Shown here: piece after piece, positions 1 to 48,295 of the stretch | Numbering within the stretch: position 1 is the stretch's first letter | Layout of the letters: the number at the start of each line of letters is the position of its first letter | Assembly: GCA_965204495.1 (NCBI GenBank) | Contig: OZ241989.1 | Location: 1,184,312-1,248,311, forward strand | Origin: Candidatus Hopanoidivoransaceae bacterium | GTDB lineage: Bacteria; Actinomycetota; Acidimicrobiia; Acidimicrobiales; Hopanoidiivorantaceae | Reading direction: 5' to 3' | Length of the DNA stretch: 64,000 nucleotides | Notes under the pieces: model-generated | Database searches by the model: none | Told to the model about the DNA's origin: nothing | Seen by the model: only the letters and a program-made list of their open reading frames with translations | Program-made: the position numbers and the translations under genes

Positions 1-3000
1 GGCACAACAAAGCTAGTGCTGCCTTGATTAGCGGCGGCGGTCACTTCAAAGCTGCAGCTAGAACCCGTGTGGGTAACAGAAGCAAGCCTGCTGGCGTTGA
101 TGCCGGTGGCGTCGCCGCACGAGATCGTGTAGCTGCCGTCTGTGGCGTAGCTGCTTACATCTACAGTCCTAGCCGTGCTTACGGGGATGACTATGCCCGA
201 AGGCGCGCTGTAGGTGATAGTAGAAGCAGCCCCGATGGTAACAGACACCTGCCCGTCCAATGTGTGCCCGCCTGCGGAGCTATACGGGATCGTGAAGGTG
301 GCAGCGCCCGTCATGCCAGCCACAGGCGTAATGGTGAAGTCGCAGCCATGCCGGACTATGTGCCGGATTATGTGGTCTATGCTGGCGTGAATGCTTCTGG
401 CGTCAGCGCAGGCGATCGTGTAGCTGCCGTCTGCGACATAGCTGGAAGCGTCTATAGTCAAAGTGCGGTTGTGGCCCACCGTCAAAGCGTTCGCCCCCAC
501 GGGAGCGGTGTAGACGATAGTGGAAGCCGGCCCGACCGTGATATCGAAGACTTGGTTCAGCACATGCCCGCCAGCAGAGCGATAAGGCACAGTGAAGGTC
601 GCATGGCCCTGCTGCGACTGCGTCAGAGTGCTGATCGGGTTGATGGTGTAGCCGCAGCCGTTGCCGGCAGAACTCCTCGTCACCGATGTCAGCTTCGTGC
701 TGTCCACGCCGGTAGCGTCTAGGCAAGAAATCGTGTAGTTCCCGTCCCTCACATAATCCGAAGCGTCAATCACACGGGTGCGGTTGATGCCGACCTGCAA
801 GGCGGGATCAGGGGCGGTGAAGACGATGGCAGAAGGCTGGCCTATGGTCACAGAAACTGTGCCCGTGGATGCGGCTCCGCCGTCTGAAGTAAACGGCACT
901 ATGAAAGTGGCCGTTCCCAAGCTGGCTGTGGTGAGGGGCGCAGCGGCGAACACACAGGGCATGTTCGCAGCGTCCGGGCGGGTAACCGATGAGAACCTGG
1001 AATGGATGTTGGTCGCATCGCCGCAAGTCACGGTGTAGCTCCCGTCAGTAGCCGCGCTGGAGAGATCCACGCTCAAAGTCCTGTTCCGCCCCACTGTCAG
1101 ACCAGCAGGAGCAGTGTAAGCAATGGTGCTGTCGGGGCCGATATTCACCGTGAAAGTCCCAGAAGCCGTAGCACCGCCGGTAGAGGTGAATGCCACAGCA
1201 AAAGTAGCGTCGCCCTGCGAGCCCACAGCCAGAGTATCAACAGGATCGACAGTGAAAGAACACCGGCTGCCAACGGAGGATCGGGTGACCGTCATCTTGT
1301 TCGCATCCACCCCCGTAGCATCCGCGCAAGACACCGTATAAGCAGCGTTCTCGCCGCTCACAGCAGCCAGAGCGTCAATCGCCAGCGTGCGGTTGCGGCC
1401 TATCTTCAACCCTGTGGGCGGCGTGAAGGTCAAAGCAGAGTCGGGGCCGATATTGACAGTGATGGTGCGGGTTATGATGTGTCCGCCGGTGGAAGTAAAC
1501 ACCACAGAGAAAGTCGTGGTGCCTTGGTCGGCCGGGGCGAGGGCATCGACGGGGTCTATGGTGTAGGTGCAGGTATTGGCAGTGCGGGTAACCGAGGTCA
1601 GTTTGGTGTTGTCCACGCCTGTGGCGTCAGCGCAGGAAATGGTGTAGCTGCCGTCAGATGCATAGCTGGAAGCGTCAATCTCCAAAGTCAAGTTCCGCCC
1701 TATCCTCAAAGTTCCAGGAGAGCTGTAGCTGATAGTAGAAGCCGCCCCCACCGTGATGGAGATATTGCCGTTGGCCGTGTCGCCGCCGTCTGAAGTGTAG
1801 GGGATGGTGAAGGTGGCTGTGCCCTGCGTGGAAGTAGGCGTGATGGTGTAGCCGCAGCCGTTCCCGCTGGTATCGCGAACCACAGAAGTCAGAGCCACAG
1901 TGCCCGTTGTCGGCACATCGGCTGCGGTGTTGGTGGCTGTGCCGCAAGAGATGGTGTAGCCGCCGTCAGCCGCGTAGTCCAAAGCATCTATGGCCAGGGT
2001 GCGGTTCGTGCCTACTGTCAGACCTGTGGGAGCGTTGAAGACGATGCTGGAGGCTGCGCCCACATCCAAAGTCAAAGTGCTAGTAAGAGTTGCGCCGCCG
2101 GATGAGCTATACGGAATAGAAATGTCGGCGGTCTGCCCAGGGGTGGCCCCGGCGGTTACCGGAATGCGACAGCCGTCCTGGGTGCCCAGGGTGATGTCGG
2201 GATCGCTCTCGGTGATTGCGCCGCAAGAAATCGTGTAGCTGCCGTCTGTGGCGTAAGAACTCACATCTATGGTGCGGGTTCTGCTGGCAGCTATAGCAGG
2301 ATGAGAAGCCGGCGCCATGAAAGTTATTTCAGAGTCGGGGCCGATATTGACCGTGATAGTGCGGGTTATGGTATGACTGCCTGTGGAAGTGAAGGTGATA
2401 GCAAAGGTAGTGTTGCCTTGGTTGGCCGGCGTTAAGGCGTCGACGGGGTCTATCGTGAAGGTGCAGGTATTAGCCGTGCGGGACACAGCCGTCTTGGAAG
2501 TGTCCACTCCAGCGGCATCCGAGCAGGAAATCGTGTAGCTGCTGCCAGATGTCTCTGCTACATAGCCGGAAGCGTCAATCTCCAAAGTCCGGTTCCGCCC
2601 CACTGTCAAAGTTCCAGGGCTGCTATATGTGATAGTGCTGTCGGGGCCGATATTGACAGTGAATGTGCCAGAAGCGGTAGCTCCGCCTGTGGAGGTGAAA
2701 GCCACAGCAAAGGTAGTGTCGCCCTGTGAGCCGGCAGCCAGAGTATCCACAGGATCAACAGTGAAAGAACAGCTGCTGCCAGTATGCGAAACAGTCATCT
2801 TGGTGGCATCCACGCCCGTGGCGTCAGCGCAATTTATAGAATACTCGCTGTTCTCGCCGCTGATGGCCGCCGCAGCGTCAATCACCAGCGTGCGGTTGCG
2901 CCCCAGGGTGAAAGTGCTGGGAGCGGTGAAAGTCACACTGCTGTCGGGGCCGACCTTCACAGAAATCGTCCCAGTAGCTGTGGCACCGCCGCTGGATGTA

Positions 3001-6000
3001 TAAGGCACGGTGAAAGTAGCGTTTGTAGCCTGCAGCGTAGAACTCAGGCTGCTTACCGGCGTAACAGTAAATGAGCAGCTGCTGCGGGTAACCGATGCGA
3101 GCCTGGTGCTGTCTATGCTGGTGGCGTCCCCGCAGGTGATCGTATAGCCGCTGCCGCTGGTCTCGCTCGCATAGCTAGCAGCATCAACCACCAGAGTCTG
3201 GTTGCGGCCCACCAGCAGCCTGCCCGCGCCAGTCGTGGGCGGGGCGTTGAAAGTGATCGCCGAGTTCAGCCCCACATTGACTGTTATCGTCCTGTCTATG
3301 CTGTGGCCGCCGGTGGAAGTGAAAGTCACGACAAAGGTGGCAGTACCTGTTGATGCTGAATTGAGCGGGTCTATGTTATAGGTGCAGGTGTTAGCCGTGC
3401 GACCGACCGAAGAAAGCCTTGAATGGATATTGCGGGCATCGGAGCACGAAATCGTCCAGGTATTGCTGGCTTCCGTTACATAACCCGAAGCGTCAATCTC
3501 CAAAGTCAAGTTCCGGCCTATGAGCAGACTGCCCGCCCCGGTAGCAGGCGGAATGTTAGCGGTGATAGTGGAATCCGGCCCGATGTTGATGGTGTAAGTC
3601 CCAGAAGCGGTGGCTCCGCCTGTGGAGGTGTATGCCACCGTGAAAGTAGTGTCGCCCTGCGAGCCCACAGCCAGAGTATCCACAGGATCAACAGTGAAAG
3701 AGCACCCATCGCCAGAAGAGCTGCGAGTGACCGTCATCCTGTTGGCATCCACGCCGGTAGCGTCAGCGCAAGTCACCGTGTAGGCAGCATTCTCGCCGCT
3801 CACAGCAGCCAGAGCGTCAATCACCAATGTCCGGTTGCGCCCCAGTGTGAAAGTGCTGGGAGCAGTGAAAGTCAAAGCAGAATCAGGGCCGATACTCACC
3901 GTGACGATGCCGTTCCTGCTATGGCCGCCCTCAGAGGTGAAGGGGACAGTGAAAGTAGTGTCGCCTTGGTTGCCCGGCGTCAAAGCATCAACGGGATCAA
4001 TCGTGAAAGTGCAGCTATTGGCCGTGCGAGTAACCGCCATCTTGTTGGCATCCACGCCCGTAGCGTCGCCGCAAGAGATCGTGTAGCTGCCGTCAGATGC
4101 ATAGCTGGAAGCGTCAATCTCCAAAGTCAGATTCCGCCCCACCCGCAGCCTGCCGGCTCCCGTAGTAGGCGGAGCGTTGTAGCTAATAGTAGAAGCCGCT
4201 CCCACTTCTATGGAGATATTCGCGTTCGTGGAGTCGCCGCCGTCCGATGTGAGCGGGACAGTAAAGGTAGCAGTGCCCTGCGTGGATGTAGGCGTAATGG
4301 TGTAGCCGCAGCCGTTCCCGCTGGAGTCGCGCACCACCGAAGCCAAAGCGACGGTGCCCGTGGTGGGCGCATCGGCTGCGGTGTTGGTGGCTGTGCCGCA
4401 GGTGATGGTGTAGCCGCTGTCCGAGGCGTAGTCCAGCACATTGATGGTCTGGGTGCGGTTGGTGCCGACTTTGAGATTCGTTGGGGCTGTGAAAGTGATG
4501 CTGGAGGCTGCGCCCACATCCAGGGTCAAGGTGCCTGTGGTGGTGTGCCCGCCTGACGAGCGATAGGGGATGGAGATGTCGGCGGTCTGCCCAGAGACCG
4601 ACCCGGCGATTATCGGAATGCGGCAGCCGTCTTGGGTGCCCAAAGAGATGTCGGGGTCGCTCTCGGTGATAGTGCCGCAAGAGATCGTGTAGCTGCCGTC
4701 TGTGGCGTAAGAACTCACATCTATAGTGCGGGTTCTGCTGGCAGCCACAGCAGGATTAGAAGCTGGAGCTGCGAAGACGATGGTGCTGTCGGGGCCGACA
4801 TTGACGGTGAGGGTGCGGGTTATTTCGTGTCCGCCGTCAGAAGTAAAAGTAATGGTAAAGGTGGCGTTGCCTTGCTGGGCCGGTGTCAAGGTGGTGATAG
4901 GCGTGATGGTGTAGGAACAGGTGTTGGCAGTGCGAGCAACGGAAGTGAGCTTGGTGCTGTCAATAGCTGTAGCGTCAGAGCAGGTGATGGTGTGGCCGCT
5001 GCCCGATACTTCAGACACATAATCCGAAGCGTCAATAGCCCGAGTGCGGTTCCGCCCCACAGTCAGGGTTCCGGGGCTGTTCCAGGTGATGGTGCTGTCG
5101 GGGCCGATGTTGACGGTGAATGTGCCAGTAGCCGTAGCACCGCCCGATGAAGTGAGAGGCACAGAAAAGGTAGTGTCGCCCTGGTTGGCCGGGGAGAGCG
5201 AATTCACAGGGTCAACGGTGAAGACGCAGCCTGTGCCAGTGGAGGATCGGGTGACCGCCATCTTGCTGGCATCTACTCCAGTGGCGTCGCCGCAAGTGAT
5301 GGTGTTGTTGCTGTCGGCTTCTGTGGCATGGGTCAGAGCGTTTATCTCCAAAGTGCGGTTCCGGCCGACCTTCAGCCCGGTGGGAGCGGTGAAGGTGAGG
5401 GTGCTGTCGGGGCCGATGTTGACGGTCACGACTCCGTTCGCGGTGGCTCTGCCGTCAGAGGAGAACGGAACAGTAAAGGTAGCGTTGCCCTGCAGGGATG
5501 AACTCAGGGTGCTGATCGGGGTGATAGTAAAAGAACAGGTGTTGGCTGTGCGGGAAACAGAAGTCAGCCTCGTGCTGTCAATGCTGGTGGCGTCCCCGCA
5601 GGTGATCGTGTAGCCGCCGTCTGAGGCATAGTCCGAGGCGTTTATGGTCAAAGTCTGGTTCCGCCCGACCGTAAGATCTGTAGGAGCATTGTAGGTTATG
5701 GAGCTGTCGGGGCCGATATTGACAGTGAAAACCCCAGTAGCCGTAGCACCGCCCGATGAAGTAAACGCCACAGAAAAAGTAGTGTCGCCCTGCGAGCCTG
5801 TGGCCAGGGTGTTCTCCGGATCCACCGTGAAGGTGCAGCTGTTAGCCGCGCGGGTAACAGTCATCTTCGTGGCATCCACCCCGGTAGCGTCGCTGCAAGT
5901 AATGGTGTAGCTGCCGTCTGAGGCATAGCTGGAAGCGTCAATCTCCAAAGTCTGGTTCCGCCCCACTTTCAACGCCGACGGCGCGTTGAAGCTAATGGAA

Positions 6001-7895
6001 GAAGCCGCTCCGACCGTCAAAGTCACCGCCCCCGACTCTGAATGGCCGCCCGAAGAGACATAAGGAACAGTGAAACCGCTAGCACCCGCAGTGCCCGTGA
6101 GAGTAATGGTGTAACTGCAGCTCCCGGCAGAAGCCTGCTCTACGGTGCTGATTTCAGTGGTGTCAATGCTGGTAGCGGCCCCGCAGGTAACCGTGTAAGC
6201 CATGTTCTCGGTTATATAGTCCAGCGCATTGATAGTCAGCGTCAGCAAGTTGCTGCCCTGCGTCAGCTGAGGATCGTTAAAGGTGATAGTAGAAGCAGGC
6301 CCCACCGTGATATTGACAACGCCGTCAACGCTGTGGCCGCCTTCGGAGGTGTAAGGCACCGTGAAGCTAGCCGCGCCCTCCACAGCCGTAGGCGTGATAG
6401 TAAACATACAGCCGCTGCGCGACACCGACATGAGCTCAGTAGTGTCAATGCTGGTAGCCTCCCCGCAAGAAATCGCATAGCCGCTGTGAGACTCGCTCAC
6501 ATAATCCGAAGCGTCAATCACACGGGTGCGGTTCGTGCCCAGCTGCAAGCCAGTAGGCCCCTCGTAGGTGATAGTGGAAGGCGGGCCCACCTCAATGCTG
6601 ATAGTGCCGTTCTCCGTGTCGCCGCCGCTGGAAGTGTAAGGCACAACGAAACTGGCAGAACCCTCCGTGCTCGTAGGCGTGATAGTAAACTCGCACCCGC
6701 TGCGCGACACCGACATGATCTCAGTGGTGTCAATACTGGTAGCCTCCCCGCAAGTGATCGTATAGCTAGCATCTGTCTCGGTTACATAGTCCAAGGCATC
6801 GATCACCTGTGTGCGGTTCGTGCCCACCTTCAACCCCGAAGGCGCATTGAAAGTGATGTTGGACGCAGGGATGACTTGAACGGACACGCTCTGGGTAGAA
6901 GTAGCACCCCCAGAAGAGATATAAGGCACCGAAATGGTGGCGGTTCCTGAGGTAGAGCCAGCGGTGATAGGGATGCTGCAGCCGTTCTGAGTGCCTAGGC
7001 TTATCAGAGCAGACGACTCGGTGATTGTCCCGCAAGTAATCGTGTAGGTGCCGTCAGAAGCATAAGCGCCCACATCAAGCGTGAGAGTGCCGCTAGGTAA
7101 GACAGTCGGGGTAGGCGAAGGCGCGTTAAAAACAATTGTAGAAGCCGGGCCCACCTGCAAACCGATGCGGCCGTTCACCGTGCCGCCGCCCGTGGAAGTA
7201 TAGGGCACAGTGAAGCCGGATGCCCCCTGAACATTCTTAGGCGTTACAGTAAACACGCAGCCGTTGCGCGTTACCGTAGAAATCTCAGTGGTGTCAATGC
7301 TGGTAGCGTTCCCGCAAGAAATCCTAAAATGAGAATGAGTCTCACTCGCATAGAGCGCAGCATTGATATCAAGAGTCCGGTTCGTGGCCACCGACAAACC
7401 AGAAGGCGCAGTGAAAGTAAGATTAGGAGCTGGCCTGACATTGATCACCAACCTACCGCTATAGGTACATTGAAATGTGCCCTGATTGCAGATTTGGAGA
7501 CCTGTATAGCTTTCGCGTCCTGCAGTTGCGGTAGCTCTAGCTGTGACTGTGTAAGCACAGCCATTGCGAGAAATAGAAGAAAACTTGCTTGTAGAGCTAA
7601 GTGTAATATTAGGGCAAGCGGGCGTGCCGGTAGAAGTTATGTATCGGTTTAGATCAAAAGTCGCAGATGTCCCTGCTGTGATCCAAAAGTCATTCAGGTT
7701 GGTATTTGATCCACCAGTTCTGTAAAACCATCGAAAGGTTTGAGCTTCTGCCGGGCTGGATGTGGCCACCGAAACGGCGAACAATGATGCTCCGATCAGA
7801 GCCACCGAGACGAGTGCTACGACAATTTTGCGAAGAGCACGAGGGAGCCAGCCGTGCGTCGCACGGGGGGGGGTGGTCTTAGGCAGCGACTTCAT
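1..7895 (-). CDS. Giant secreted/cell-surface repeat protein, N-terminal >2,600 aa (C-terminus lies beyond position 1)
   Basis: Absent from the ORF track, presumably because it has no stop in the window. None of the listed minus-strand ORFs between 1 and 7895 uses this frame. ATG at 7895 has GAGG 8-11 nt upstream. Hand translation gives MKSLPKTTPPRATHGWLPRALRKIVVALVSVALIGASLFAVSVATSSPAEA (signal-peptide-like), then ~100-aa modules of the type VGRNRTL.IDAS.YASDGSYTI.CGDATG.D....C.FT..P....QG.ATF.V.[FY]TS.GG. The plus-strand ORFs listed here are Arg/Gly/Ala-rich antisense shadows. Confidence 0.8.
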   Translation of the reverse strand, partial: MKSLPKTTPPRATHGWLPRALRKIVVALVSVALIGASLFAVSVATSSPAEAQTFRWFYRTGGSNTNLNDFWITAGTSATFDLNRYITSTGTPACPNITLSSTSKFSSISRNGCAYTVTARATATAGRESYTGLQICNQGTFQCTYSGRLVINVRPAPNLTFTAPSGLSVATNRTLDINAALYASETHSHFRISCGNATSIDTTEISTVTRNGCVFTVTPKNVQGASGFTVPYTSTGGGTVNGRIGLQVGPASTIVFNAPSPTPTVLPSGTLTLDVGAYASDGTYTITCGTITESSALISLGTQNGCSIPITAGSTSGTATISVPYISSGGATSTQSVSVQVIPASNITFNAPSGLKVGTNRTQVIDALDYVTETDASYTITCGEATSIDTTEIMSVSRSGCEFTITPTSTEGSASFVVPYTSSGGDTENGTISIEVGPPSTITYEGPTGLQLGTNRTRVIDASDYVSESHSGYAISCGEATSIDTTELMSVSRSGCMFTITPTAVEGAASFTVPYTSEGGHSVDGVVNITVGPASTITFNDPQLTQGSNLLTLTINALDYITENMAYTVTCGAATSIDTTEISTVEQASAGSCSYTITLTGTAGASGFTVPYVSSGGHSESGAVTLTVGAASSISFNAPSALKVGRNQTLEIDASSYASDGSYTITCSDATGVDATKMTVTRAANSCTFTVDPENTLATGSQGDTTFSVAFTSSGGATATGVFTVNIGPDSSITYNAPTDLTVGRNQTLTINASDYASDGGYTITCGDATSIDSTRLTSVSRTANTCSFTITPISTLSSSLQGNATFTVPFSSDGRATANGVVTVNIGPDSTLTFTAPTGLKVGRNRTLEINALTHATEADSNNTITCGDATGVDASKMAVTRSSTGTGCVFTVDPVNSLSPANQGDTTFSVPLTSSGGATATGTFTVNIGPDSTITWNSPGTLTVGRNRTRAIDASDYVSEVSGSGHTITCSDATAIDSTKLTSVARTANTCSYTITPITTLTPAQQGNATFTITFTSDGGHEITRTLTVNVGPDSTIVFAAPASNPAVAASRTRTIDVSSYATDGSYTISCGTITESDPDISLGTQDGCRIPIIAGSVSGQTADISIPYRSSGGHTTTGTLTLDVGAASSITFTAPTNLKVGTNRTQTINVLDYASDSGYTITCGTATNTAADAPTTGTVALASVVRDSSGNGCGYTITPTSTQGTATFTVPLTSDGGDSTNANISIEVGAASTISYNAPPTTGAGRLRVGRNLTLEIDASSYASDGSYTISCGDATGVDANKMAVTRTANSCTFTIDPVDALTPGNQGDTTFTVPFTSEGGHSRNGIVTVSIGPDSALTFTAPSTFTLGRNRTLVIDALAAVSGENAAYTVTCADATGVDANRMTVTRSSSGDGCSFTVDPVDTLAVGSQGDTTFTVAYTSTGGATASGTYTINIGPDSTITANIPPATGAGSLLIGRNLTLEIDASGYVTEASNTWTISCSDARNIHSRLSSVGRTANTCTYNIDPLNSASTGTATFVVTFTSTGGHSIDRTITVNVGLNSAITFNAPPTTGAGRLLVGRNQTLVVDAASYASETSGSGYTITCGDATSIDSTRLASVTRSSCSFTVTPVSSLSSTLQATNATFTVPYTSSGGATATGTISVKVGPDSSVTFTAPSTFTLGRNRTLVIDAAAAISGENSEYSINCADATGVDATKMTVSHTGSSCSFTVDPVDTLAAGSQGDTTFAVAFTSTGGATASGTFTVNIGPDSTITYSSPGTLTVGRNRTLEIDASGYVAETSGSSYTISCSDAAGVDTSKTAVSRTANTCTFTIDPVDALTPANQGNTTFAITFTSTGSHTITRTITVNIGPDSEITFMAPASHPAIAASRTRTIDVSSYATDGSYTISCGAITESDPDITLGTQDGCRIPVTAGATPGQTADISIPYSSSGGATLTSTLTLDVGAASSIVFNAPTGLTVGTNRTLAIDALDYAADGGYTISCGTATNTAADVPTTGTVALTSVVRDTSGNGCGYTITPTSTQGTATFTIPYTSDGGDTANGNISITVGAASTISYSSPGTLRIGRNLTLEIDASSYASDGSYTISCADATGVDNTKLTSVTRTANTCTYTIDPVDALAPADQGTTTFSVVFTSTGGHIITRTITVNIGPDSALTFTPPTGLKIGRNRTLAIDALAAVSGENAAYTVSCADATGVDANKMTVTRSSVGSRCSFTVDPVDTLAVGSQGDATFAVAFTSTGGATASGTFTVNIGPDSTIAYTAPAGLTVGRNRTLSVDLSSAATDGSYTVTCGDATNIHSRFSSVTRPDAANMPCVFAAAPLTTASLGTATFIVPFTSDGGAASTGTVSVTIGQPSAIVFTAPDPALQVGINRTRVIDASDYVRDGNYTISCLDATGVDSTKLTSVTRSSAGNGCGYTINPISTLTQSQQGHATFTVPYRSAGGHVLNQVFDITVGPASTIVYTAPVGANALTVGHNRTLTIDASSYVADGSYTIACADARSIHASIDHIIRHIVRHGCDFTITPVAGMTGAATFTIPYSSAGGHTLDGQVSVTIGAASTITYSAPSGIVIPVSTARTVDVSSYATDGSYTISCGDATGINASRLASVTHTGSSCSFEVTAAANQGSTSFVV
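100..7330 (-). repeat. Tandem ~300-nt coding modules with a ~2.45-kb higher-order repeat
   Basis: The plus-strand motif GTGTAGCTGCCGTC recurs about every 290-310 nt (for example at ~125, 420, 1035, 1640, 2230, 4085, 4685). The stretch 1633-1960 is nearly identical to 4081-4440, and 2225-2300 to 4677-4750 (offset ~2450 nt). Confidence 0.85.
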
Positions 7896-7955
7896 TTTGG
7901 CCTCACGCAGAGAGAGCTGTGCATAGCACGGGGGGGGGTGTCGTAGACGACTTTT
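7861..7955. repeat. Pair of ~30-33-nt G9-containing direct repeats (period 65)
   Basis: 7861-7893 GCACGGGGGGGGGTGGTCTTAGGCAGCGACTTC versus 7926-7955 GCACGGGGGGGGGTGTCGTAGACGACTTT. The first copy encodes codons 2-12 of the giant gene and the second lies in its 5' UTR. Confidence 0.75.
7865..7873 (-). repeat. Homopolymeric C9 tract (coding strand) in codons 8-11 of the giant gene
   Basis: Plus strand reads GCAC-G9-TGG. On the coding strand this is ACC ACC CCC CCC CGT, in frame with ATG 7895. Confidence 0.9.
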
Positions 7956-7984
7956 TCCTATAGGGGTTTAATTTCATATAAGGT

Positions 7985-7993
7985 ATTGTAGCA
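7985..7993 (-). promoter_or_regulatory. Candidate extended -10 (TGCTACAAT) for the giant gene
   Basis: The reverse complement of 7985-7993 is TGCTACAAT, ~90 nt upstream of ATG 7895. The same 9-mer occurs in the CRISPR leader. Confidence 0.4.
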
Positions 7994-8031
7994 AGCAAGT
8001 GGATTATTGCAAGTCATGTGTCTGATTTGGT

Positions 8032-8817
8032 TCATGTGTCTGATTTGGTTGCTTTGATGATTTCCAAGAACGCTTTGCCTTCCAGCAACAGGGCATTGCT
8101 GATTTCTGCGTGTCGCCAAGCCATAGCAGTTCGTTTCACTGCTACGGCAGAGTGCATGTTCTTCTCAGCGATGGCTGTTGCGGCTGCGATGGCATCTTCC
8201 AGAAATGTCTCGGACACTTTGAACACCAGACCCATCTCTCTGGCTTCCTGAGCCCCTACCCATTCGGAGCTCAGCAGCAGCCACATGGCGTTCTGCCATC
8301 CGAGCAGCTGCGGCAGCAGCCAAGTGGATGCCGCCTCCGCCCCCACTCCCAGAGAGGTGAAGGGACATTTGAAGCGCGCCTGAGGCGAAGCGAATGCGAG
8401 GTCGGCGAACCCCAGCATGGTAGTTCCCAGCCCCACGGCTGCCCCGTTCACCGCCATCACCAGCGGTTTAGGGAAGCACTGCAGGGCTTGCAGCAGCTTC
8501 CAAGAATCGCCAGCTTCAGCATTGCCGGTTGCCTCGTCGCTTGCCTCGCTGCCTGCTTTATCGCTTGCCTCGCTGCTTGATGCCTCGTCTGGCAGCCCGC
8601 CCGTCAATGATGCCAGTTCTTTGAGGTCTATCCCCGCGCTGAAAGCTTTGCCCTCTCCTGTCAGCACCACTGCGCCTACGCTGCTGTCCTCGGCGGCGTC
8701 GCCAAGAGCGGCGTTCACCTCGTTGCGCAAGGCGTGATTAAAAGCGTTGCTGGCTTCGGGGCGACAAAATATCAGCACCTTCACCCGCCCTTTGGTCTGT
8801 GTCTTCAGCAAGCTCAT
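8032..8817 (-). CDS. Enoyl-CoA hydratase/isomerase (crotonase) family protein
   Basis: The track ORF is 8032..8835. The internal ATG at 8817 is preferred because AGGAG lies 6 nt upstream. Crotonase-type sequence VKVLIFCRPEASNAFN...VVLTGEGKAFSAGIDLKEL. It contains an acidic Ser/Ala-rich insert. Confidence 0.8.
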   Translation of the reverse strand: MSLLKTQTKGRVKVLIFCRPEASNAFNHALRNEVNAALGDAAEDSSVGAVVLTGEGKAFSAGIDLKELASLTGGLPDEASSSEASDKAGSEASDEATGNAEAGDSWKLLQALQCFPKPLVMAVNGAAVGLGTTMLGFADLAFASPQARFKCPFTSLGVGAEAASTWLLPQLLGWQNAMWLLLSSEWVGAQEAREMGLVFKVSETFLEDAIAAATAIAEKNMHSAVAVKRTAMAWRHAEISNALLLEGKAFLEIIKATKSDT

Positions 8818-9017: not shown

Positions 9018-9953
9018 ATGGAGACTTCCAGCACCGCCGCTCTCGCTTCGCAGAATTCTGGCTCGCTAGCTCTGGAAGTTGAAGACATCTCGGTTGTGTA
9101 TCAACGCTCCATCAAAGCCCTGCAGGGCGTGAGCCTCAAGGTGCCGGAGGGCGAGGTCGTGGCGATTTTGGGCGCCAACGGCGCAGGCAAGACTACCTTG
9201 CTCCGCACCATCAGCGGACTGCTGGGCTTTCACGGCGGGGCTGTTGCTTCGGGGTCGTATCGCCTGTGGGGGCGACCAGCCGAAAAGCTAGCCCCGCAGA
9301 CGATAGTGAGGCGGGGCTTGGCACAGGTAATGGAAGGCAGGCGCATCTTGGCGCAGCTTACAGTGGAAGAAAACCTTGACTTGGGCGCCATCTCGGTGAC
9401 TAAGAAAGAAGTCCGAGAGGCTAAGCCTCCAATCGTGGAAGAAAACCTTGACCCAGGCGCCATCTCGGTGCGCAGCCGCCGCGATACTGCCGACCGCAAG
9501 CACCCTCGGCTGTGGCCGATCAATTTGCTGCGTGAGAGCGTGCGCAGCCGCCGCGACACTGCCGCCCGCAAGCACAGCTTGTTCGAGCAGTTTCCACAGC
9601 TGAGCGACCGCCGGCATTCGGTGGCGGGCTATCTCTCTGGCGGGGAGCAGCAGATGCTCGCTATCGCCAGAGCGTTGATGAGCGATCCGCGCTTCATCAT
9701 TTTGGACGAGCCTTCGCTCGGCTTGGCCCCGATAATCGCCCATCAGATCGCCGACATCATCTCTGAGATAGCCGCCGGCGGCACGACGGTGCTGCTGGTG
9801 GAGCAGAACGCGGCTATGGCCCTTGCGCTGTGCCGCTATGCCTATGTGTTCCAGACGGGCAAGGTTGCGAAGGAGGGCACGGCTGAAGAGCTGCTGGACG
9901 ACCCATACATGCAAGAGCTTTATCTGGGGCTTGCCGGGGCAGACGCAGCATGA
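9018..9953 (+). CDS. livF: Branched-chain amino acid ABC transporter ATP-binding protein (LivF type) with two 24-aa insertions
   Basis: Walker A GANGAGKTTLL, signature LSGGEQQMLAIARAL, Walker B FIILDEPSLGLAP. Its stop overlaps the next gene's start (ATGA). Confidence 0.85.
   Translation: METSSTAALASQNSGSLALEVEDISVVYQRSIKALQGVSLKVPEGEVVAILGANGAGKTTLLRTISGLLGFHGGAVASGSYRLWGRPAEKLAPQTIVRRGLAQVMEGRRILAQLTVEENLDLGAISVTKKEVREAKPPIVEENLDPGAISVRSRRDTADRKHPRLWPINLLRESVRSRRDTAARKHSLFEQFPQLSDRRHSVAGYLSGGEQQMLAIARALMSDPRFIILDEPSLGLAPIIAHQIADIISEIAAGGTTVLLVEQNAAMALALCRYAYVFQTGKVAKEGTAEELLDDPYMQELYLGLAGADAA
9363..9575 (+). repeat. Two adjacent units of 36-nt duplication plus 36-nt insert inside livF
   Basis: A1 9363-9398 and A2 9435-9470 are 33/36 identical. 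B1 9468-9503 and B2 9540-9575 are 34/36 identical. The inserts 9399-9434 and 9504-9539 are unrelated to the flanks. Confidence 0.9.
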
Positions 9954-10834
9954 CTGAAGCAACTGCTGTCAAAGATTCGGCGTCTGCTGCGGGCCAATCG
10001 CAATCTGCTGCCAGCAGATCTGATGCTGAACTTCGCGGGGCAGAACTCAGCGAGGCAGAACCGCGCGGAGCAGAACTTCGCATAGAAAATGTGAGCTTCG
10101 GAGTGGGCGGCATCTCTATCTTGGAAGATGTCAGCCTCACGGTGCGGCCCGGCGAGCTGATGGGAATCATCGGGCCGAACGGAGCGGGCAAGTCTTCGCT
10201 GTTCAACTGCATCAGCGGCATATATGTGCCGACCGTCGGGCGCATCGCGTTGGATGGGCAGCCGCTCACAGGGCTGCGACCTGTGGCAGTCGCTCGCCGA
10301 GGCGTTGCCCGCACATTCCAAAATCTCGCGCTTTTTGACAACCTGAATGTCGCCGACAATCTCATGCTGGGCCGCCACCGTCTTATGCGCACGGGTTTCG
10401 CAACGGGTGCAGTGTGGTTCGGGCGGGCACGGCGGGAGGAAGCGATCCATCGCCAGGCTTGTGCTGAGCTTGTGGAACTGCTCGGCTTGGGAGCATCAGC
10501 GCATCTGCCTGTGGGGCTGCTGCCGTACGGGGCGCAGAAGCGAGTGGAGCTAGGGCGAGCTTTGGCGTCTTCTCCCGATGTGCTGCTGCTGGACGAGCCA
10601 GTGGCGGGGATGAACACGGAAGAGACCGAGCAGATGTCGGCGATCCTGCGAAACATCCACCAGCAGCTGGACATCACGATAGTGCTAGTGGAACACGATG
10701 TGCACATGGTGGTGGGCCTGGCCGAGCGCATCTGCGCGATCAACTTCGGCCAAGTGGTGACAGTGGACGAGCCGCAAGCCGTGGTGTCGCACCCGACGGT
10801 CGTGGAAGCCTATTTAGGGTCGGAGTGGTCGTAA
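9950..10834 (+). CDS. livG: Branched-chain amino acid ABC transporter ATP-binding protein (LivG type)
   Basis: Walker A GPNGAGKSSLFN, Walker B LLLDEPVAGMN. LivG-like C-terminus HPTVVEAYLG. Confidence 0.85.
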   Translation: MTEATAVKDSASAAGQSQSAASRSDAELRGAELSEAEPRGAELRIENVSFGVGGISILEDVSLTVRPGELMGIIGPNGAGKSSLFNCISGIYVPTVGRIALDGQPLTGLRPVAVARRGVARTFQNLALFDNLNVADNLMLGRHRLMRTGFATGAVWFGRARREEAIHRQACAELVELLGLGASAHLPVGLLPYGAQKRVELGRALASSPDVLLLDEPVAGMNTEETEQMSAILRNIHQQLDITIVLVEHDVHMVVGLAERICAINFGQVVTVDEPQAVVSHPTVVEAYLGSEWS

Positions 10835-11838
10835 TGAAAGACACCAGATCGCCACTCCACGACACTCTCGTCTATACCGCATGGACGCTCGGCGCGCTCG
10901 CAGCGGTCTTGCTCATCGTGTCTTTGGCCGACGGCGGCGACGGGCGGGAGAAGTTCCTGCAGCTGCTGGTTGGCGGCATCGCCTTGGGGAGCATCTATGC
11001 GCTCTTGTCGTTCGGCTTCGTTATCGTCTATAAAGCCACAGGCGTGTTCAACTTGGCGCAAGGCGGTTTCGTGCTGCTCGGCACATATCTGGCGTATCAG
11101 TTCTACACCGACTGGGGCTGGATGTTCGGGCTGGCTCTGGCGGCTGCCGTGCTCGCGATGGCAGCTATCGGGGCAGGCATAGAGCGGGCCGTGATGCGCA
11201 AAATGCTCACCAAGCCCACCTTCACAGCCATAATGGTGACGCTCGCCATCCTCATCGTGATAGAGCAGATCACTCGCAGCATCTGGAATTCGCCGGGTCT
11301 GGTGCTTGCCGCTCCCTGGGGCACAGGGCGCATTCAGCCCGGCGGCGTGACCATCCGATATCTGGATTTCTGGACGGTCGGCTTCACCTTCGTGCTGCTC
11401 GGGGCTTTCTTCTTGTTTTTCCGCTACACCCGCATCGGCTTGGGGATGCGAGCCACGGCTTTTGACAGAGAGGTAGCCTCGGCGCAAGGCGTGCGGGTGG
11501 GCTTGTCGTTCGCGCTTTCTTGGGCGATTGCCGCTGCCGTGGCGACCGTGGCCGGCGTTCTGCTCACGAGCCGCAGCGGGGGCGCGCTCACCCCTGCCAT
11601 CAGCTTTGTGGCCCTGCGGGCTTTCCCGGCGATGATCCTAGGCGGGCTGGATTCCGCAGGCGGAGCTGTGGCAGGCGGCGTGATAATAGGCGTGGCCGAA
11701 GTGATGGTGCAAGGCTATGTGGATGTGGACTGGCTTGGGGAGAGCTTTGAGACGGTGGTGCCGTATCTAGTAATGCTGCCGATCCTGCTATGGCGCCCCT
11801 CCGGTCTTTTCGGCACAAGAGCAGTGGAGCGGGTTTAG
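10834..11838 (+). CDS. livH: Branched-chain amino acid ABC transporter permease (LivH type)
   Basis: The track ORF starts at GTG 10825. ATG 10834 shares one base (A 10834) with the livG TAA stop (10832-10834) and has GGAG ~8 nt upstream. Multi-pass membrane protein in operon context. Confidence 0.8.
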   Translation: MKDTRSPLHDTLVYTAWTLGALAAVLLIVSLADGGDGREKFLQLLVGGIALGSIYALLSFGFVIVYKATGVFNLAQGGFVLLGTYLAYQFYTDWGWMFGLALAAAVLAMAAIGAGIERAVMRKMLTKPTFTAIMVTLAILIVIEQITRSIWNSPGLVLAAPWGTGRIQPGGVTIRYLDFWTVGFTFVLLGAFFLFFRYTRIGLGMRATAFDREVASAQGVRVGLSFALSWAIAAAVATVAGVLLTSRSGGALTPAISFVALRAFPAMILGGLDSAGGAVAGGVIIGVAEVMVQGYVDVDWLGESFETVVPYLVMLPILLWRPSGLFGTRAVERV

Positions 11839-11855
11839 GGGATTGGAAGATTGAG

Positions 11856-13079
11856 ATGAATACAATAACCCGACTTTTGAGACGAGGGTTCGGAGGCAAC
11901 AGCGTGCCCAGCCAACCTCGCTCAAGCTCAGCCAACTCCCCAGAAAAGCCGCCTGCTGGCTCTTCAAGTCTGTCTTCTGCTGCATCCCCACCGCGATTCC
12001 TCCCAGGCTGGGATGCCAGGGCCGCTGTCTTCGCAATCGTGGTTTTGATCGCGCTGCTGCCAGTGCTCTTGGACAGCCCGTTCTGGATGAATGTGCTGGT
12101 CACCGCCGGTGCTTATTCTGCCGCAGCCATCGGTTTGAATATCCTCACGGGCTACACAGGGCAAGTCTCGCTCGGACACGCAGCGTTCTTGACCATCGGC
12201 GGCTACGCAGCAGGATACTTCGGCGCATCGCAAGGCTGGACGCTGATTCTATGGCTGGGAATGGCTGCAGTGTGCGGAGCGATAGTCGGCGGGGTGGTCG
12301 GCCCGTTCGCCCTGCGGGTGAAAGGCGACTATCTGGTGGTGGTGAGCTTGGCTTTGCTGTTCATCACCTCCCATGTGGTGGAAAACTGGGATAGCGTCAC
12401 CGGCGGGCACGACGGCATTTCAGTGAGCAAAGCTTCACTGGCTTTCGGCCCCATCAACTTCGGCGACCTGCGTCTGTTCGGCAGGGAATTCAGCCGAGAG
12501 GAGGGCTTGTTCTATCTCGCTTGGCTGCTCGTGGGCATTTTTGCCGTGATCGCACGCAACATCATGCGGTCTCGCCCCGGACGAGCCCTGCAAGCCGTAC
12601 GCGACCGCGACACCGCCGCCGAAGTCTTAGGCGTAAGCAGCGCCCGCTACAAGATCGCCGCTTTCGTGCTCTCCAGCGCCATGGCAGCCACCGCAGGCGG
12701 AGTGATAGCCGTAGCGCAAAGATTCCTAACCCCGAACGAGCCGCTAGCCGAGCTTTTCATCTCCATCCAGTTCGTAGCCATAATAGTGGTAGGAGGCGTG
12801 GCGACCATCTACGGCTCCGTGCTAGGAGCAGTGCTGCTGGTAGCCCTCCCAGAAGTCATCAAAGAATACACCCACTGGTTTGACTTCACAGTCCCGCTTT
12901 TTGACCGACCCCTAGTGTCGTCCTCAGGCTTGGATCAAGGCTTGTTCAACCCCGGTTCATTCAGCAACCTGCTCTTCGGATTGCTGCTAGTAGGCTTCCT
13001 GCTGCTCTGGCCCAGGGGTATCGCAGGCTGGCTACAATCGCTCCGCGCCCTCCTGCGCACACTATCGCTTCGCCGCTAA
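11856..13079 (+). CDS. livM: Branched-chain amino acid ABC transporter permease (LivM type)
   Basis: The track ORF is 11790..13079. ATG 11856 (MNTITRLL) avoids a long overlap with livH. Polytopic; LivM-like motif GQVSLGHAAF. Confidence 0.75.
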   Translation: MNTITRLLRRGFGGNSVPSQPRSSSANSPEKPPAGSSSLSSAASPPRFLPGWDARAAVFAIVVLIALLPVLLDSPFWMNVLVTAGAYSAAAIGLNILTGYTGQVSLGHAAFLTIGGYAAGYFGASQGWTLILWLGMAAVCGAIVGGVVGPFALRVKGDYLVVVSLALLFITSHVVENWDSVTGGHDGISVSKASLAFGPINFGDLRLFGREFSREEGLFYLAWLLVGIFAVIARNIMRSRPGRALQAVRDRDTAAEVLGVSSARYKIAAFVLSSAMAATAGGVIAVAQRFLTPNEPLAELFISIQFVAIIVVGGVATIYGSVLGAVLLVALPEVIKEYTHWFDFTVPLFDRPLVSSSGLDQGLFNPGSFSNLLFGLLLVGFLLLWPRGIAGWLQSLRALLRTLSLRR

Positions 13080-13080
13080 T

Positions 13081-13911
13081 TCAATTTGTGGCTGTCTCTG
13101 AAATTTGTACTGCTGATGGCCTGCCCAGTGTGCCATCCCAGATGTAAGCGATGAAACGACCTGAAGCGGAAAGTGTGTATTGCGTGTTTTCTTCTCTAGT
13201 TATGGTGATATTTATTGGATTGCAGATAACCGCAATGGCTGAAAAGTCTCCATGCACTAGTACATTTTCAGGCAAGTGTTGGTTTAGAATGGGCAAACCG
13301 ACATAATCCAGCTTTTCTCGCAATTTTGCGGCAGTTTTCGGATGGCACATCAAAAGCATATTGCTTGAAGTTGTGTTGTCTGTTGCTAGGTGTTCAAGAT
13401 TCAGTACTCTTTCATAGGAAGCATATTGGTTCCAAAATTTTTCAGTCAGTTCTTTGTTGCATCTTCTGGCATACAGTGGCAGCAGTCTGTTGAAAACCGT
13501 GTGTTCCGTCATAGTAGCCATTGTGTGGTCAGAGAACGGAACGCTGTCGGGTCGTTTCCAAGGTGTGGCCTGTAACCCTATACTTAGTTCAGCGGCTACT
13601 GTTGCTTCTCTGAATTGAATATCTGGAATGGGCAGTCCATGATAAAGATGCTCGCGAGCATCAGATATGACGGGCTGGCGGAACCCTGGCTGCTTCAATT
13701 CGCCTTCTAAATCTTTGACGCAGAAAGCTGATACTCTCGCCCAGAGAGGAGCCTCTTTCCTCATTCGATGCCGCACGCGAGACAGTGTTTTTGGATTGCA
13801 ATCCAAAGACATGAATGTTTTTGTAGACGGCTGACTGTCTTTTGGAGCAAACAGGTGTCGTCCTGTCCACTCTAGGGTATAAGACACAAAGGGGATCTCC
13901 GTTGATGTCAT
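13081..13911 (-). CDS. Hypothetical protein (276 aa), translationally coupled partner of the upstream AAA+ ATPase
   Basis: Its ATG overlaps the ATPase stop (ATGA at 13908-13911), with AAGGAG just upstream. AT-richer than the flanks. I recognise no motif. Confidence 0.6.
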   Translation of the reverse strand: MTSTEIPFVSYTLEWTGRHLFAPKDSQPSTKTFMSLDCNPKTLSRVRHRMRKEAPLWARVSAFCVKDLEGELKQPGFRQPVISDAREHLYHGLPIPDIQFREATVAAELSIGLQATPWKRPDSVPFSDHTMATMTEHTVFNRLLPLYARRCNKELTEKFWNQYASYERVLNLEHLATDNTTSSNMLLMCHPKTAAKLREKLDYVGLPILNQHLPENVLVHGDFSAIAVICNPINITITREENTQYTLSASGRFIAYIWDGTLGRPSAVQISETATN

Positions 13912-15395
13912 GTGCTTACTCCTTGTTGCAGCAGATAATTTTGCCTGACTTCCATTGCCAGCATAAAATGGCTTAAGGGCACGGACTTGATTTCGCTATG
14001 GTGATCAACGGGCGCATCGGGAGTTACCACATAAGTATTCCCCGCCAACTGGTTGTATCCGCTTTTTGACAGCAGTTTTTTTACTCCCTGCAGTTTGCGC
14101 ATTTTATTTGTATAGCTGCTGCCGACCTCTATTGCCAAAGGGGTGCCGCCCCGTTCTTCTTCCAAAACGAAATCTATCTCGCAGCCTTTGTCACGCAGAT
14201 GGGAAAGCTTAGCTCTGCCGAGCGTAAGTTTCACAAGTCCGTTCAAAGAAGCGGCGACCATGTTCTCAGCAGACCATCCTCGTTCGCTGTCGCGCATCTG
14301 TTCTGGAGTTCTAAAGCTCAAAGCTGCCGGAACAGAGTTGTCATAGAAAAAAACTTTTTTCTTTCGCTTCGGGCCTGAATAATTTGGCAGTAAGAACAGC
14401 AGCATTGCATCATCAAGTGCAGCAAAATATCTGTCTAGCGTGGTTTCTGCCATGCTGATATCTGGGTTTTTCGCCCATTCTTTTCTGACAACTTCCCGTC
14501 CAGGATGCTCTGCTGCTAGACGCAATATAGCAGAAGCTTTAATCGGGTTGGATATTTTAGAGTACTCTTCGATGTCCCGTTGAAGTATTTGGGTGATAAT
14601 CTGTCTGATGTGTCCGTGCCTTTCAACCATGAACTCTGCCTTTTCTCCATCATTCATCATTGGGCGAGGATACAAATTTTCTGGACACCCTCCTGTAGAT
14701 GCTAGATCCCAAAAATATTCCTGCAGAAGTTTGTCATTAAAGTCTGGAGCAATATGCTTAATTATTTCCCTCAACGGCTTGTCAGCAATTTGAAAAAAAT
14801 CTGGAAACGGCAGCGAACTGCGCACAAGATTTGCGGCTTCTTGCATCTGAGATGGAAGCAAATAATATTCAGATGCTCTGCCAGCCCAGCTTTCTATCAT
14901 TCCCCTGTTCAGTGCTGATGAAGAGCCTGATGTGCATACTATTCTGAACGGATACAGGGCTGGTTCATCATATGCCCGTTTCAGCGTTTTGTTCCACCCT
15001 CCTGAATACACTATTTCGTCCAGCAGAAGAAAACAAGGTTCTTTTTCTGAGGCGCCAGTGATAGATTTGATTCCCTCCAGAAGTTCGTGCAGTCTAATGC
15101 CTGTAAAAACATCGTCATCCAGAGACAAAAAGACTAGTTTTTCAGGTTGGCACCTTTGTTCTGTGACTGCTCGTTTGGCTAGATGCTTAAGGACTGTGGT
15201 CTTGCCTACCCTTCTGGGCCCCAGAATGACTTTGTGGCAGGCTCTTTGAGATATTGGCGTGGTGGTGATTTCTCGCCACAGCATCTGCGCTAGGGTCCGT
15301 TCTTCGCATGTATTCGCTTGGCTGTGAAAGCGGCCTGCGTCTGCCATCCAAGGGCTGTTCGCTTGGATGATGCGTCTAAGAAGTTCGATGTCCAT
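13908..15395 (-). CDS. AAA+ ATPase of the COG1373 type (AAA_14 plus DUF4143-like C-terminal region)
   Basis: Walker A GPRRVGKTT and Walker B LLLDEIVY. The track start 15413 is TTG. ATG 15395 (MDIELLRR) is preferred because TGCTATAAT ends 6 nt upstream, implying a leaderless transcript. Confidence 0.75.
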   Translation of the reverse strand: MDIELLRRIIQANSPWMADAGRFHSQANTCEERTLAQMLWREITTTPISQRACHKVILGPRRVGKTTVLKHLAKRAVTEQRCQPEKLVFLSLDDDVFTGIRLHELLEGIKSITGASEKEPCFLLLDEIVYSGGWNKTLKRAYDEPALYPFRIVCTSGSSSALNRGMIESWAGRASEYYLLPSQMQEAANLVRSSLPFPDFFQIADKPLREIIKHIAPDFNDKLLQEYFWDLASTGGCPENLYPRPMMNDGEKAEFMVERHGHIRQIITQILQRDIEEYSKISNPIKASAILRLAAEHPGREVVRKEWAKNPDISMAETTLDRYFAALDDAMLLFLLPNYSGPKRKKKVFFYDNSVPAALSFRTPEQMRDSERGWSAENMVAASLNGLVKLTLGRAKLSHLRDKGCEIDFVLEEERGGTPLAIEVGSSYTNKMRKLQGVKKLLSKSGYNQLAGNTYVVTPDAPVDHHSEIKSVPLSHFMLAMEVRQNYLLQQGVST

Positions 15396-15401
15396 GTGTC
15401 T

Positions 15402-15410
15402 ATTATAGCA
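15402..15410 (-). promoter_or_regulatory. Extended -10 TGCTATAAT of the ATPase cassette (leaderless start)
   Basis: The reverse complement of 15402-15410 is TGCTATAAT, 6 nt before ATG 15395. The palindrome CTATATCTT-N4-AAGATATAG lies at ~15432-15453 upstream. Confidence 0.55.
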
Positions 15411-15551
15411 CAAATTGGCAAAATGTGGTATTTAAATGCTATATCTTCTGCAAAGATATAGTATCAAGGGTGATATTTTGACAAAAGCTAGTCTTCATCC
15501 TCATGGCGAAGCCGAATTATGCGTTGCTTGGGCTTAGGCCGTTCTGGGATT

Positions 15552-16709: not shown

Positions 16710-16751
16710 AAATTCATTATGCCTTGAAATAACCGCTAAGTTCAGAAGCAG

Positions 16752-39686: not shown

Positions 39687-39968
39687 TTGGTTGCGCTGGT
39701 GGCGGTTGTCCGAGCATCTACAGCAGACAAAAAGATTCGCAGTCGATTCTGAAATAGCAAAGATATTTCTTGAGGGGGATGGGGGGTTCGAGGGGTTCCT
39801 GCGAGAGGTCGTGTGGCAACACCATCCCCAGCCACCTCTCGTGCCCTGCTACAATAACCCCAAAGAGGGGCATCCGAACCTTGGCAATCTATTCCCCAAA
39901 CAAAAAATCCCCACCCACTCGCAATCGGCCAATTCTCCCCAAGCCAATTGCGCCCAACAAAGTGAGTG
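39687..39968 (+). promoter_or_regulatory. CRISPR leader with candidate extended -10 TGCTACAAT at 39847-39855
   Basis: Non-coding stretch between cas2 and the first repeat. TGCTACAAT lies ~113 nt before repeat 1. The ORFs listed here are repeat or leader artefacts. Confidence 0.55.
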
Positions 39969-44062: not shown

Positions 44063-44411
44063 CGTTCTACCTCCGTTATCTGAATTATGTATCTGCATTA
44101 TACATGTTTTTCAGTTATATGACAACCTATTTTGTTGATGATTTTGCCATATATTGGAGATTGATAGCATTTTCTAGGATTTTAAGGCTTATAGAACTGG
44201 AAATCTTGGAATATCTAGAATATAGATATCCAAATTCCAAGAAGCTAGATTTGTCCATCACAGACGGAATTAGCTTGCCTAATTCGCTTCTGCTATGTTT
44301 GTGCCGGCGCAGGCGAGTGAAGTGGTCGGCGTGTCAGTGATTGTGCCGTATGTGACCTGCCGAGAGCACGGCATCGATTATCTCTGCGGTTAGTGCTTTC
44401 ACCGCGCCGGC

Positions 44412-48294: not shown

Positions 48295-48295
<1 letters not shown>
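47363..48295 (-). CDS. Short Cas8u-family (Csb3/Csx17-like) putative large subunit
   Basis: The ATG at 48295 overlaps the cas3 TGA. The N-terminal LTGLDGTNPLGFFAALGVQVLFADE resembles the PLG..LKALGV..L motif I recall at Csx17/Cas8u N-termini. Last gene of the effector operon. Confidence 0.5.

Follow-up and report, generated by a model that had tools for sequence, protein, structure and literature searches.

A giant gene for an array of two-cysteine, cadherin-like modules, and its product as a probable surface stalk, in an uncultured member of the Acidimicrobiales

The giant gene and its upstream region

The DNA analysed here, referred to below as the window, is a stretch of 64,000 nucleotides (positions 1,184,312 to 1,248,311 of contig OZ241989.1, assembly GCA_965204495.1) from a Candidatus Hopanoidivoransaceae bacterium of the order Acidimicrobiales. 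One end of the window is occupied by a giant gene on the minus strand, which encodes an array of tandem modules behind a signal peptide. Translation of minus-strand frame 1 of positions 1-8100 gave 2,655 uninterrupted codons. From the first ATG, at position 7895, to position 3 there are 2,631 codons with no stop, and the in-frame stop allowed for in the initial annotation was thus not found. The gene runs off the window and is therefore missing from the list of open reading frames (ORFs), and its description as a protein of >2,600 amino acids, cut by the window and invisible among the listed ORFs, was accurate. The 3′ end is cut at the window edge. An orthologue described below implies ~740 further codons, and by this comparison the window appears to hold the N-terminal four-fifths of the giant protein. 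The gene and the features at its start are as follows.

3-7895, minus strand: coding sequence of the giant protein (open frame; colinear 92 % DNA match to metagenome scaffold L001, positions 9448-17397; ratio of nonsynonymous to synonymous substitution rates, dN/dS, 0.195)
7743-7895, minus strand: signal peptide, amino acids 1-51 (basic n-region, hydrophobic core and AxA motif; predicted cleavage after AEA)
7901-7906, minus strand: Shine-Dalgarno-like GTGAGG, 5 nt before the ATG (read from the upstream sequence)
7985-8012, minus strand: promoter-like site, TTGCAA, 16 nt, TG-TACAAT, ~90 nt upstream of the ATG (consensus scan, a pattern match only)

The N-terminus (MKSLPKTTPPRATHGWLPRALRKIVVALVSVALIGASLFAVSVATSSPAEA, followed by Q) is organised as a Sec signal peptide. 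Its n-region is basic (RALRK), its h-region is a hydrophobic core of 21 residues, and its c-region ends in AEA before Q. This assignment was made by eye and from hydropathy. The signal peptide is retained in the orthologue, where it is the sole strongly hydrophobic segment of the full-length protein, and comparable signal peptides are found at the start of paralogues. The secretion signal proposed at the outset therefore stands, with a Sec-type layout.

Directly upstream of the promoter-like site is an 18-nt perfect tandem direct repeat (TCATGTGTCTGATTTGGT, 2.1 copies, window positions 8014-8050), which extends into the end of an enoyl-CoA hydratase gene. It could be an operator.

Organization of the modules

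The protein was split at its Cys pairs and at a V/I-G-P-x-S boundary motif, which gave 26 modules of 93-107 amino acids. The window's protein has 54 Cys, all of them in pairs (27 in total), and 30 % of the residues are Thr or Ser. Modules M02 to M25 abut directly, with no linkers between them. The modules, numbered from the N-terminus, and the three that belong to a variant subtype are listed here.

7440-7739, minus strand: M01, divergent N-terminal tip module with four Cys, amino acids 53-152 (weak match to the module hidden Markov model, HMM, 16 bits)
237-7439, minus strand: M02 to M25, 24 complete two-Cys modules of 93-107 amino acids with a predicted cadherin-like immunoglobulin (Ig) fold (alignment, module HMM and AlphaFold2 model of M08)
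3-236, minus strand: M26, cut by the window edge (module HMM and alignment)
6876-7154, minus strand: variant module M03, short inter-Cys loop, TITESSALISLGTQNGCSIP (63 % identical to M11)
4518-4799, minus strand: variant module M11, TITESDPDISLGTQDGCRIP (82 % amino acid identity with M19)
2064-2345, minus strand: variant module M19, AITESDPDITLGTQDGCRIP (alignment)

The module consensus is xGPxSTITFxAPxxLxVGRNRTLxIDASxYASxDxxYTIxCGDATxxD...VTRxxNGCxFTITP...QGxATFTVPYTSxGG. All three of the motifs recognised initially (YTI.CGDATG.D, C.FT.TP and [FY]TS.GG) lie within it, and with the signal peptide and the 26 modules the original description, a giant secreted protein composed of two-Cys modules in tandem, holds.

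M03, M11 and M19 form a separate subtype with a short inter-Cys loop (...TITESDPDISLGTQDGCRIP...). Their first Cys residues are at window positions 7034, 4679 and 2225, respectively, a spacing of 8 modules or 2,454 bp. The placing of a variant at every eighth module in the initial annotation is thus correct, and the sequence string given for it is exact in M11 and M19; M03 is only a loose match (ESSALISLGTQNGCSIP). M12 and M20 have a 10-residue insertion in the loop.

An N-x-[ST] tripeptide, mostly NRT, is found at a fixed position (alignment columns 20-22; for example GRNQT in M08) in 46 % of 680 complete modules from the wider family, and its Thr is invariant in the 24 aligned modules of the window (M02-M25). 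An enrichment of N-glycosylation sites was rejected, as 36 sequons were observed against 33 expected and there is no overall excess.

The cysteine pair

Both Cys are conserved in all of the 680 complete modules, which were taken from 46 family proteins, and 663 of the 680 contain exactly two Cys, 16-32 residues apart. The inter-Cys loop includes most of the highest-variability columns of the module and the main length differences, and a second variable patch follows the second Cys. In the AlphaFold2 model described in the next section, the first Cys is at the end of the strand formed by residues 38-40 and the second is just before strand 62-67, which is not the canonical B-F position of Ig domains. 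The pair most likely forms an intradomain disulfide that closes the most variable loop. Actinobacteria are known to rely on extracytoplasmic disulfides, and the Cys pair fits with this.

In P0175, a protein with a He_PIG/Rib array from an unrelated organism, there are two Cys at positions that hhalign aligns with the Cys pair of the module. This alignment suggests that other parts of the superfamily may have acquired, or retained, the same Cys staple.

Fold and superfamily

AlphaFold2 modelling of M08 (window positions 5418-5717) with an alignment of 100 modules gave a predicted local distance difference test score (pLDDT) of 97.2 and a predicted template modelling (pTM) score of 0.87. The model is a beta sandwich of seven beta strands with one short helix. 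Foldseek comparison to the PDB found moderate matches, with template modelling (TM) scores of 0.5-0.6 and none at E ≤ 0.001. The top match was the cadherin-like module of the staphylococcal adhesin SraP (4m02, TM 0.59), and further matches were Rib (6s5w), the cadherin-like domain of dystroglycan, PKD, cadherin EC and Vibrio FrhA. The leading matches are stalk or adhesion domains of surface proteins. The Ig-like beta sandwich anticipated in the initial annotation is therefore what the model predicts, and the leading structural matches are Ig-like or cadherin-like.

Pfam was searched with 100 diverse modules and none reached threshold. The best Big_9 E-value was 5.9e-4, M08 scored 13.7 bits against a gathering threshold of 23.6 bits, and the commonest weak matches were to AglB_L1 and Big_9. 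For the whole protein, Pfam gave only summed sub-threshold Ig-like hits (CelD_N, 41 bits; DUF7077, 34 bits; LacZ_4; RbmA-like FnIII), with no individual stretch passing. NCBIfam returned only noise for the window's protein, a search of PDB sequences with the module profile gave no significant match, and a literature search on DUF7077 found nothing. The early statement that the module could not be placed in a named family is borne out by these searches.

The weak tail of the HMMER search described below consists of arrays of Big_9, Cadherin_5, Cadherin_4 and He_PIG domains that end in type IX secretion (T9SS), S-layer homology (SLH) or dockerin segments, that is, of surface proteins. Big_9, Cadherin_5 and He_PIG arrays are the only proteins outside the family that the module profile reaches. 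When the module alignment was compared using hhalign to repeats from these weak-tail proteins, the probability was 94 % (E 1.6e-7) for Big_9-type, 81 % for He_PIG-type and 78 % for Cadherin_5-type repeats. The module resembles the Big_9 (PF17963), Cadherin_5 (PF17892) and He_PIG (PF05345) units of the Pfam E-set clan in its length of ~90-100 amino acids and in its strand pattern, (L)xVGxxxTxxIDxSxYxSD...YTI... and then ...LTITP...GTATFTV...GG. It differs from them in having only SDG in place of the acidic DPDGD-type loop, in its two additional invariant Cys and in Pfam scores that are far below gathering. Classical cadherin Ca2+ motifs were sought in the 2,631 amino acids, and with no DxNDN, no LDRE and two DxD a classical Ca2+-binding cadherin was rejected. 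On the profile comparisons and the predicted structure, the module belongs to the bacterial cadherin-like Ig superfamily as a divergent branch specific to its lineage, and falls outside current Pfam families by the Pfam thresholds.

The orthologue, sequence constraint and local synteny

The closest relative of the window's protein is P0002, encoded on ENA metagenome scaffold L001, with 93-94 % amino acid identity. Positions 9448-17397 of L001 are colinear with window positions 7938-1 at 92 % DNA identity. P0002 was called from an internal Met; the real start, with the same signal peptide, is at L001 position 9491, which increases the length to 3,372 amino acids. This full-length start is confirmed by P0057 (3,380 amino acids), a member of the same cluster. 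The orthologue has 32 modules. Its alignment with the window's protein contains 10 gap columns, and dN/dS is 0.195. The colinear orthologue and this ratio indicate a real gene under constraint. M01 and M02 are the fastest-evolving parts. Relative to the orthologue, M01 has a dN of 0.30 and a dN/dS (omega) of 0.51, and omega is 0.85 for M02 and 0.02-0.3 for most other modules, which are under purifying selection.

The module count is the same in all 8 members of the 90 % identity cluster that contains the orthologue, 5 of which are on contigs of 1.2-2.6 Mb. The repeat number is therefore neither an assembly artefact nor variable among strains here, and neither the copy-number variation nor the assembly collapse that had been envisaged was seen.

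Homology to L001 ends 43 bp upstream of the ATG (window positions 7896-7938, L001 position 9448). Upstream of the giant gene there are genes for the enoyl-CoA hydratase and a Liv-type ABC transporter in the window, and small unknown genes in L001. The upstream genes differ and homology stops, which puts the giant gene at a breakpoint in synteny.

An assembly artefact, or a decaying pseudogene made up of collapsed or chimeric repeats, might be suspected from this breakpoint and from a highly repetitive gene in a metagenome-type lineage. This explanation is close to refuted by the 2,631 codons without a stop, by repeats that are only 40-83 % identical, which makes collapse unlikely, by the orthologue, which is colinear and whose module number is shared by eight assemblies, including several with Mb-scale contigs, and by the dN/dS of 0.195.

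The super-repeat and the age of the duplication

The initial annotation described super-repeats of ~2.45 kb, and considered blocks within them (1633-1960 and 4081-4440) to be near-identical at the DNA level and a sign of recent block duplication or gene conversion. A period of 8 modules, 2,454 bp, is indeed present. Modules that are 8 apart share a mean amino acid identity of 58.8 %, compared to 44-50 % (about 46 %) at other offsets, and blastn comparison of the region with itself identified two copies.

3574-5617, minus strand: super-repeat copy A, ~M08-M14 (blastn self-match to copy B)
1132-3151, minus strand: super-repeat copy B, ~M16-M22 (blastn self-match to copy A)

The two copies are 75.4 % identical over 2,055 nt, at an offset of 2,442-2,454. 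The 8-module signal comes mainly from M10-M14 compared to M18-M22 (71-83 % amino acid identity), and the period is clear only for M08-M14 relative to M16-M22. It is weak for M03/M04 and M11/M12 (61-63 %), and M15-M18 compared to M23-M26 (39-52 %) show no period above background. Other pairings are also close (M14 and M17, 78 %; M07 and M13, 72 %), which shows that the array arose through duplications that differed in unit size.

Between the two blocks said to be near-identical, identity is 80.8 % with 15 gap positions, and no exact word shared by the super-repeat copies exceeds 49 nt. Tandem Repeats Finder reported nothing in positions 1-8000 because the copies are too diverged. As the paralogous blocks are 75-81 % identical and the orthologue is 92 % identical and colinear, the duplication predates the split between the strains, with no homogenization since. 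Recent gene conversion was rejected on the same grounds, and the suggested recent origin was not upheld.

Distribution of the module family and its paralogues

Standard pipelines name nothing at the giant gene. When 1.84 billion representative proteins were searched exhaustively (HMMER) using the module profile, only 163 matched at E ≤ 0.001, and 81 at E ≤ 1e-30. This defines an extremely narrow module family of ~160 representative proteins. Matches to the whole protein formed 46 clusters at 90 % identity among 5.8 billion proteins, all of them unnamed, with 8-44 modules per member. The representative library adds two longer proteins, one of 7,058 amino acids with 63 modules and one of 7,821 amino acids with 51 modules. 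No relative was found when the genome contig collection was scanned with the whole protein.

Leucine-rich repeat (LRR) regions are present in many paralogues, N-terminal to the modules (P0007, P0014, P0070; locus L002, positions 12000-17985). In P0007, for example, a signal peptide and LRRs (at about 170-655) precede 26 modules, after which comes the same C-terminal domain as in the orthologue, described below. The LRRs are of the 24-residue plant type, LxxLxLxxNxLxGxIP, with a Cys-containing N-terminal cap, and lie ahead of the module array. Several paralogues can occur in one genome: P0009, P0051 and P0059 are together on one contig of 2.13 Mb, and P0028, P0034, P0036, P0038 and P0040 are on the 2.29-Mb chromosome OY282367.1, partly in tandem. 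Several LRR-type paralogue genes on OY282367.1 are in tandem. Neighbourhoods are not conserved among the paralogues, and no secretion, sortase or glycosylation genes were present among the neighbours examined.

The cysteinyl-tRNA synthetase (CysRS) gene that adjoins the orthologue is 75 % identical to the one in OY282367.1, listed as "uncultured Acidimicrobiales bacterium", and the next-best CysRS matches, from Ca. Poriferisocius and other Acidimicrobiia, are ~52 % identical. This places the window in a rather isolated Acidimicrobiales clade. From the distribution of matches, the module family appears to be confined to a small Acidimicrobiales clade. The idea of a sponge symbiont was not adopted, as its basis is only the distant relatives (Ca. 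Poriferisocius, 52 % CysRS) and the LRR paralogues.

Several properties of the protein and its paralogues would suit a surface coat or spacer with no adhesive role, in which Thr/Ser-rich and possibly glycosylated filaments form a protective brush or an S-layer-like fuzz against phages, grazers or host factors. These are the content of Thr plus Ser (30 %), the N-x-[ST] at a fixed position in 46 % of modules, the lack of a detected adhesive domain, the presence of several paralogues in a small genome (such as the three on the 2.13-Mb contig), and purifying selection on the modules, as for a structural array. However, there is no SLH or other S-layer signature, sequons are not in excess (36 compared to 33 expected), the same stalk carries LRR binding heads in paralogues, and the tip is the fastest-evolving part, as for an interaction surface. 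We consider a coat of this kind unlikely.

The C-terminal region

The C-terminal region lies outside the window and was read from the 92 %-identical orthologue and from paralogues. Full-length relatives have one of two C-terminal types, either a Pro/Thr spacer followed by a domain of ~197 amino acids or an 84-amino-acid Cys-rich tail, found in the OY282367.1 paralogues. The Pro/Thr-rich spacer (...PTPPPPTTTTTTT...) precedes the 197-amino-acid domain in most full-length family members. In the orthologue, this domain is at residues 3006-3202 of P0002 (L001, about 19000-19609). Eighteen of its residues are invariant, seven Trp and two Cys among them, and its AlphaFold2 model has a pLDDT of 85. 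No match to the domain was found in Pfam, and comparison of its profile to PDB sequences gave nothing significant. Foldseek found no match to the model in the PDB (best E 0.06, TM ≤ 0.26) and none in BFVD. The only further carriers in a large protein collection are seven short unnamed proteins.

No LPXTG-like motif, SLH domain or second hydrophobic segment was found in the full-length orthologues, P0057 and P0002. Two known types of surface protein were rejected. An RTX/LapA-type adhesin exported by a type I secretion system (T1SS) does not fit, as GGxGxD is absent from the window's protein and from the orthologues and there is an N-terminal Sec signal instead, nor does an SLH-anchored S-layer protein, as there is no such Pfam hit in the window's protein, the tail of the orthologue or the paralogues.

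In Gram-positive surface proteins, the parts that span the wall and provide anchoring come after a Pro/Thr spacer. Because of its position after such a spacer, which is the sole basis for this, the 197-amino-acid domain is a candidate anchor, and we propose that it holds the protein on the cell envelope.

Alternatively, the protein might be a released matrix or biofilm scaffold that is not retained on the producer and cross-links cells or polymers through its repeats. The absence of a known anchor is consistent with this, as are the cadherin-like fold, given that cadherin-like and Big-type repeats occur in matrix proteins, and the FrhA and RbmA-like hits. However, most full-length members have a conserved C-terminal domain after the Pro/Thr spacer, a layout typical of wall-spanning or anchoring segments, and Ca2+-binding cadherin motifs are absent. 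A released scaffold is, in our judgement, very unlikely.

Interpretation and comparison to known surface proteins

We conclude that the giant gene probably encodes a Sec-exported fibrillar surface stalk or adhesin-like protein of ~3,370 amino acids, which would be retained via its C-terminal end and would display a fast-evolving tip. The protein would be exported through the Sec pathway and its signal peptide cleaved. A linear string of ~32 tandem cadherin-like (Big_9/He_PIG-type) Ig-fold modules, 26 of them in the window, would then form a thin stalk. As an Ig-like domain is ~4 nm long, the stalk would be >100 nm in length. After the stalk, by analogy with the orthologue, would come the Pro/Thr-rich spacer and the lineage-specific domain of 197 amino acids, proposed to anchor the protein on the envelope. 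The fast-evolving tip, M01-M02, would be presented far from the cell, in the position that is taken by the LRR head in paralogues.

Fibrillar adhesins have four defining features, namely export, tandem stalk domains, an adhesive domain and a known anchor, and a head-stalk-anchor layout has been described for those of Gram-positive bacteria (PMC8286594). The proposed reading follows this logic, and paralogues such as P0007 have the same layout. Two of these four features, export and the tandem stalk, were found here; an adhesive domain and a known anchor were not. Like fibrillar adhesins such as SraP, Rib/alpha-C and SasG, the window's protein has a signal peptide, a long tandem Ig-like array and a variable N-terminal tip. 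The LRR head of the paralogues, the C-terminal end after a Pro/Thr-rich spacer, and the best structural matches (SraP 4m02, then Rib 6s5w) are further likenesses. Unlike them, the window's protein lacks a recognised adhesive domain and an LPXTG or other known anchor, its modules are below the Pfam thresholds for stalk domains, and each module has an invariant Cys pair.

There is also a resemblance to internalins. P0007-type paralogues combine a signal peptide, an LRR region, Ig-like modules and a C-terminal domain that is non-covalent-looking and rich in conserved Trp and GW dipeptides. However, LRRs are absent from the window's protein and are of a 24-residue, plant-like type in the paralogues, there are 26 stalk modules rather than one Ig-like inter-repeat domain, and neither the Pfam GW domain nor any PDB fold is matched by the C-terminal domain.

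Several points weigh against a retained, adhesin-like stalk. Pfam and NCBIfam recognised no adhesive domain in the window's protein, and none of the recognised anchor types (LPXTG, SLH, transmembrane helix or RTX repeats) is present in the orthologue. The proposed anchor domain is without a match in Pfam, the PDB or BFVD and its role is guessed from its position; it also lies outside the window and is assumed from the 92 %-identical orthologue. In addition, no conserved neighbour genes hint at a function at the window, orthologue or paralogue loci, and the habitat was not found in literature on the sample and contig accessions.

As surface stalks of tandem Ig-like domains are common, the overall kind of protein is familiar and not surprising. 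Among the genes of uncultured bacteria, those for giant repeat proteins rank with the most poorly annotated. The new part is a very narrowly distributed, strictly Cys-paired branch, and its value lies mainly in annotation and in offering a way into the biology of a lineage that has not been cultured. The loose end of greatest interest is the C-terminal domain: with the sortase motif absent and a 197-amino-acid domain for which no structural relative was found, the question of how 100-nm fibrils are held becomes concrete and testable. The LRR-bearing paralogues hint at an interaction with a eukaryotic or cellular partner.

A more far-reaching proposal, which we regard as doubtful, is that the family might constitute a surface-display system private to a single clade of uncultured Acidimicrobiales with small genomes. 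Disulfide-stapled stalks of 8-63 modules would be held by an undescribed, sortase-free anchor fold of 197 amino acids, and would carry swappable heads, either plant-type LRRs or divergent tips, that grip a eukaryotic host or partner cell. If this were true, the domain would represent a new class of Gram-positive cell-envelope anchor.

Other features of the window

An array of clustered regularly interspaced short palindromic repeats (CRISPR) was found at window positions 39968-42362. It consists of ~33 units with a 36-nt repeat (GCTATCGGGGGGCAGTCCGCCCCCCCTTCATTGAAGC) and a period of 71-72, and cas genes are nearby at 36005-37819 (plus strand), 48295-51144 (minus strand) and 51131-52777 (minus strand). 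The array is beside a Cas4-Cas1 fusion, Cas3 and a GSU0054-family protein and, from this gene content, the locus looks like a type I-U/I-G system.

A patch of low G+C content (0.47-0.52, compared to about 0.60) is present at 12500-14000. It covers an ORF at 13081-13911 that has no Pfam hit, and an AAA_14/DUF4143 ATPase gene at 13908-15413 (minus strand). A second AAA_14/DUF4143 gene, at 42392-44098 (minus strand), adjoins the CRISPR array.

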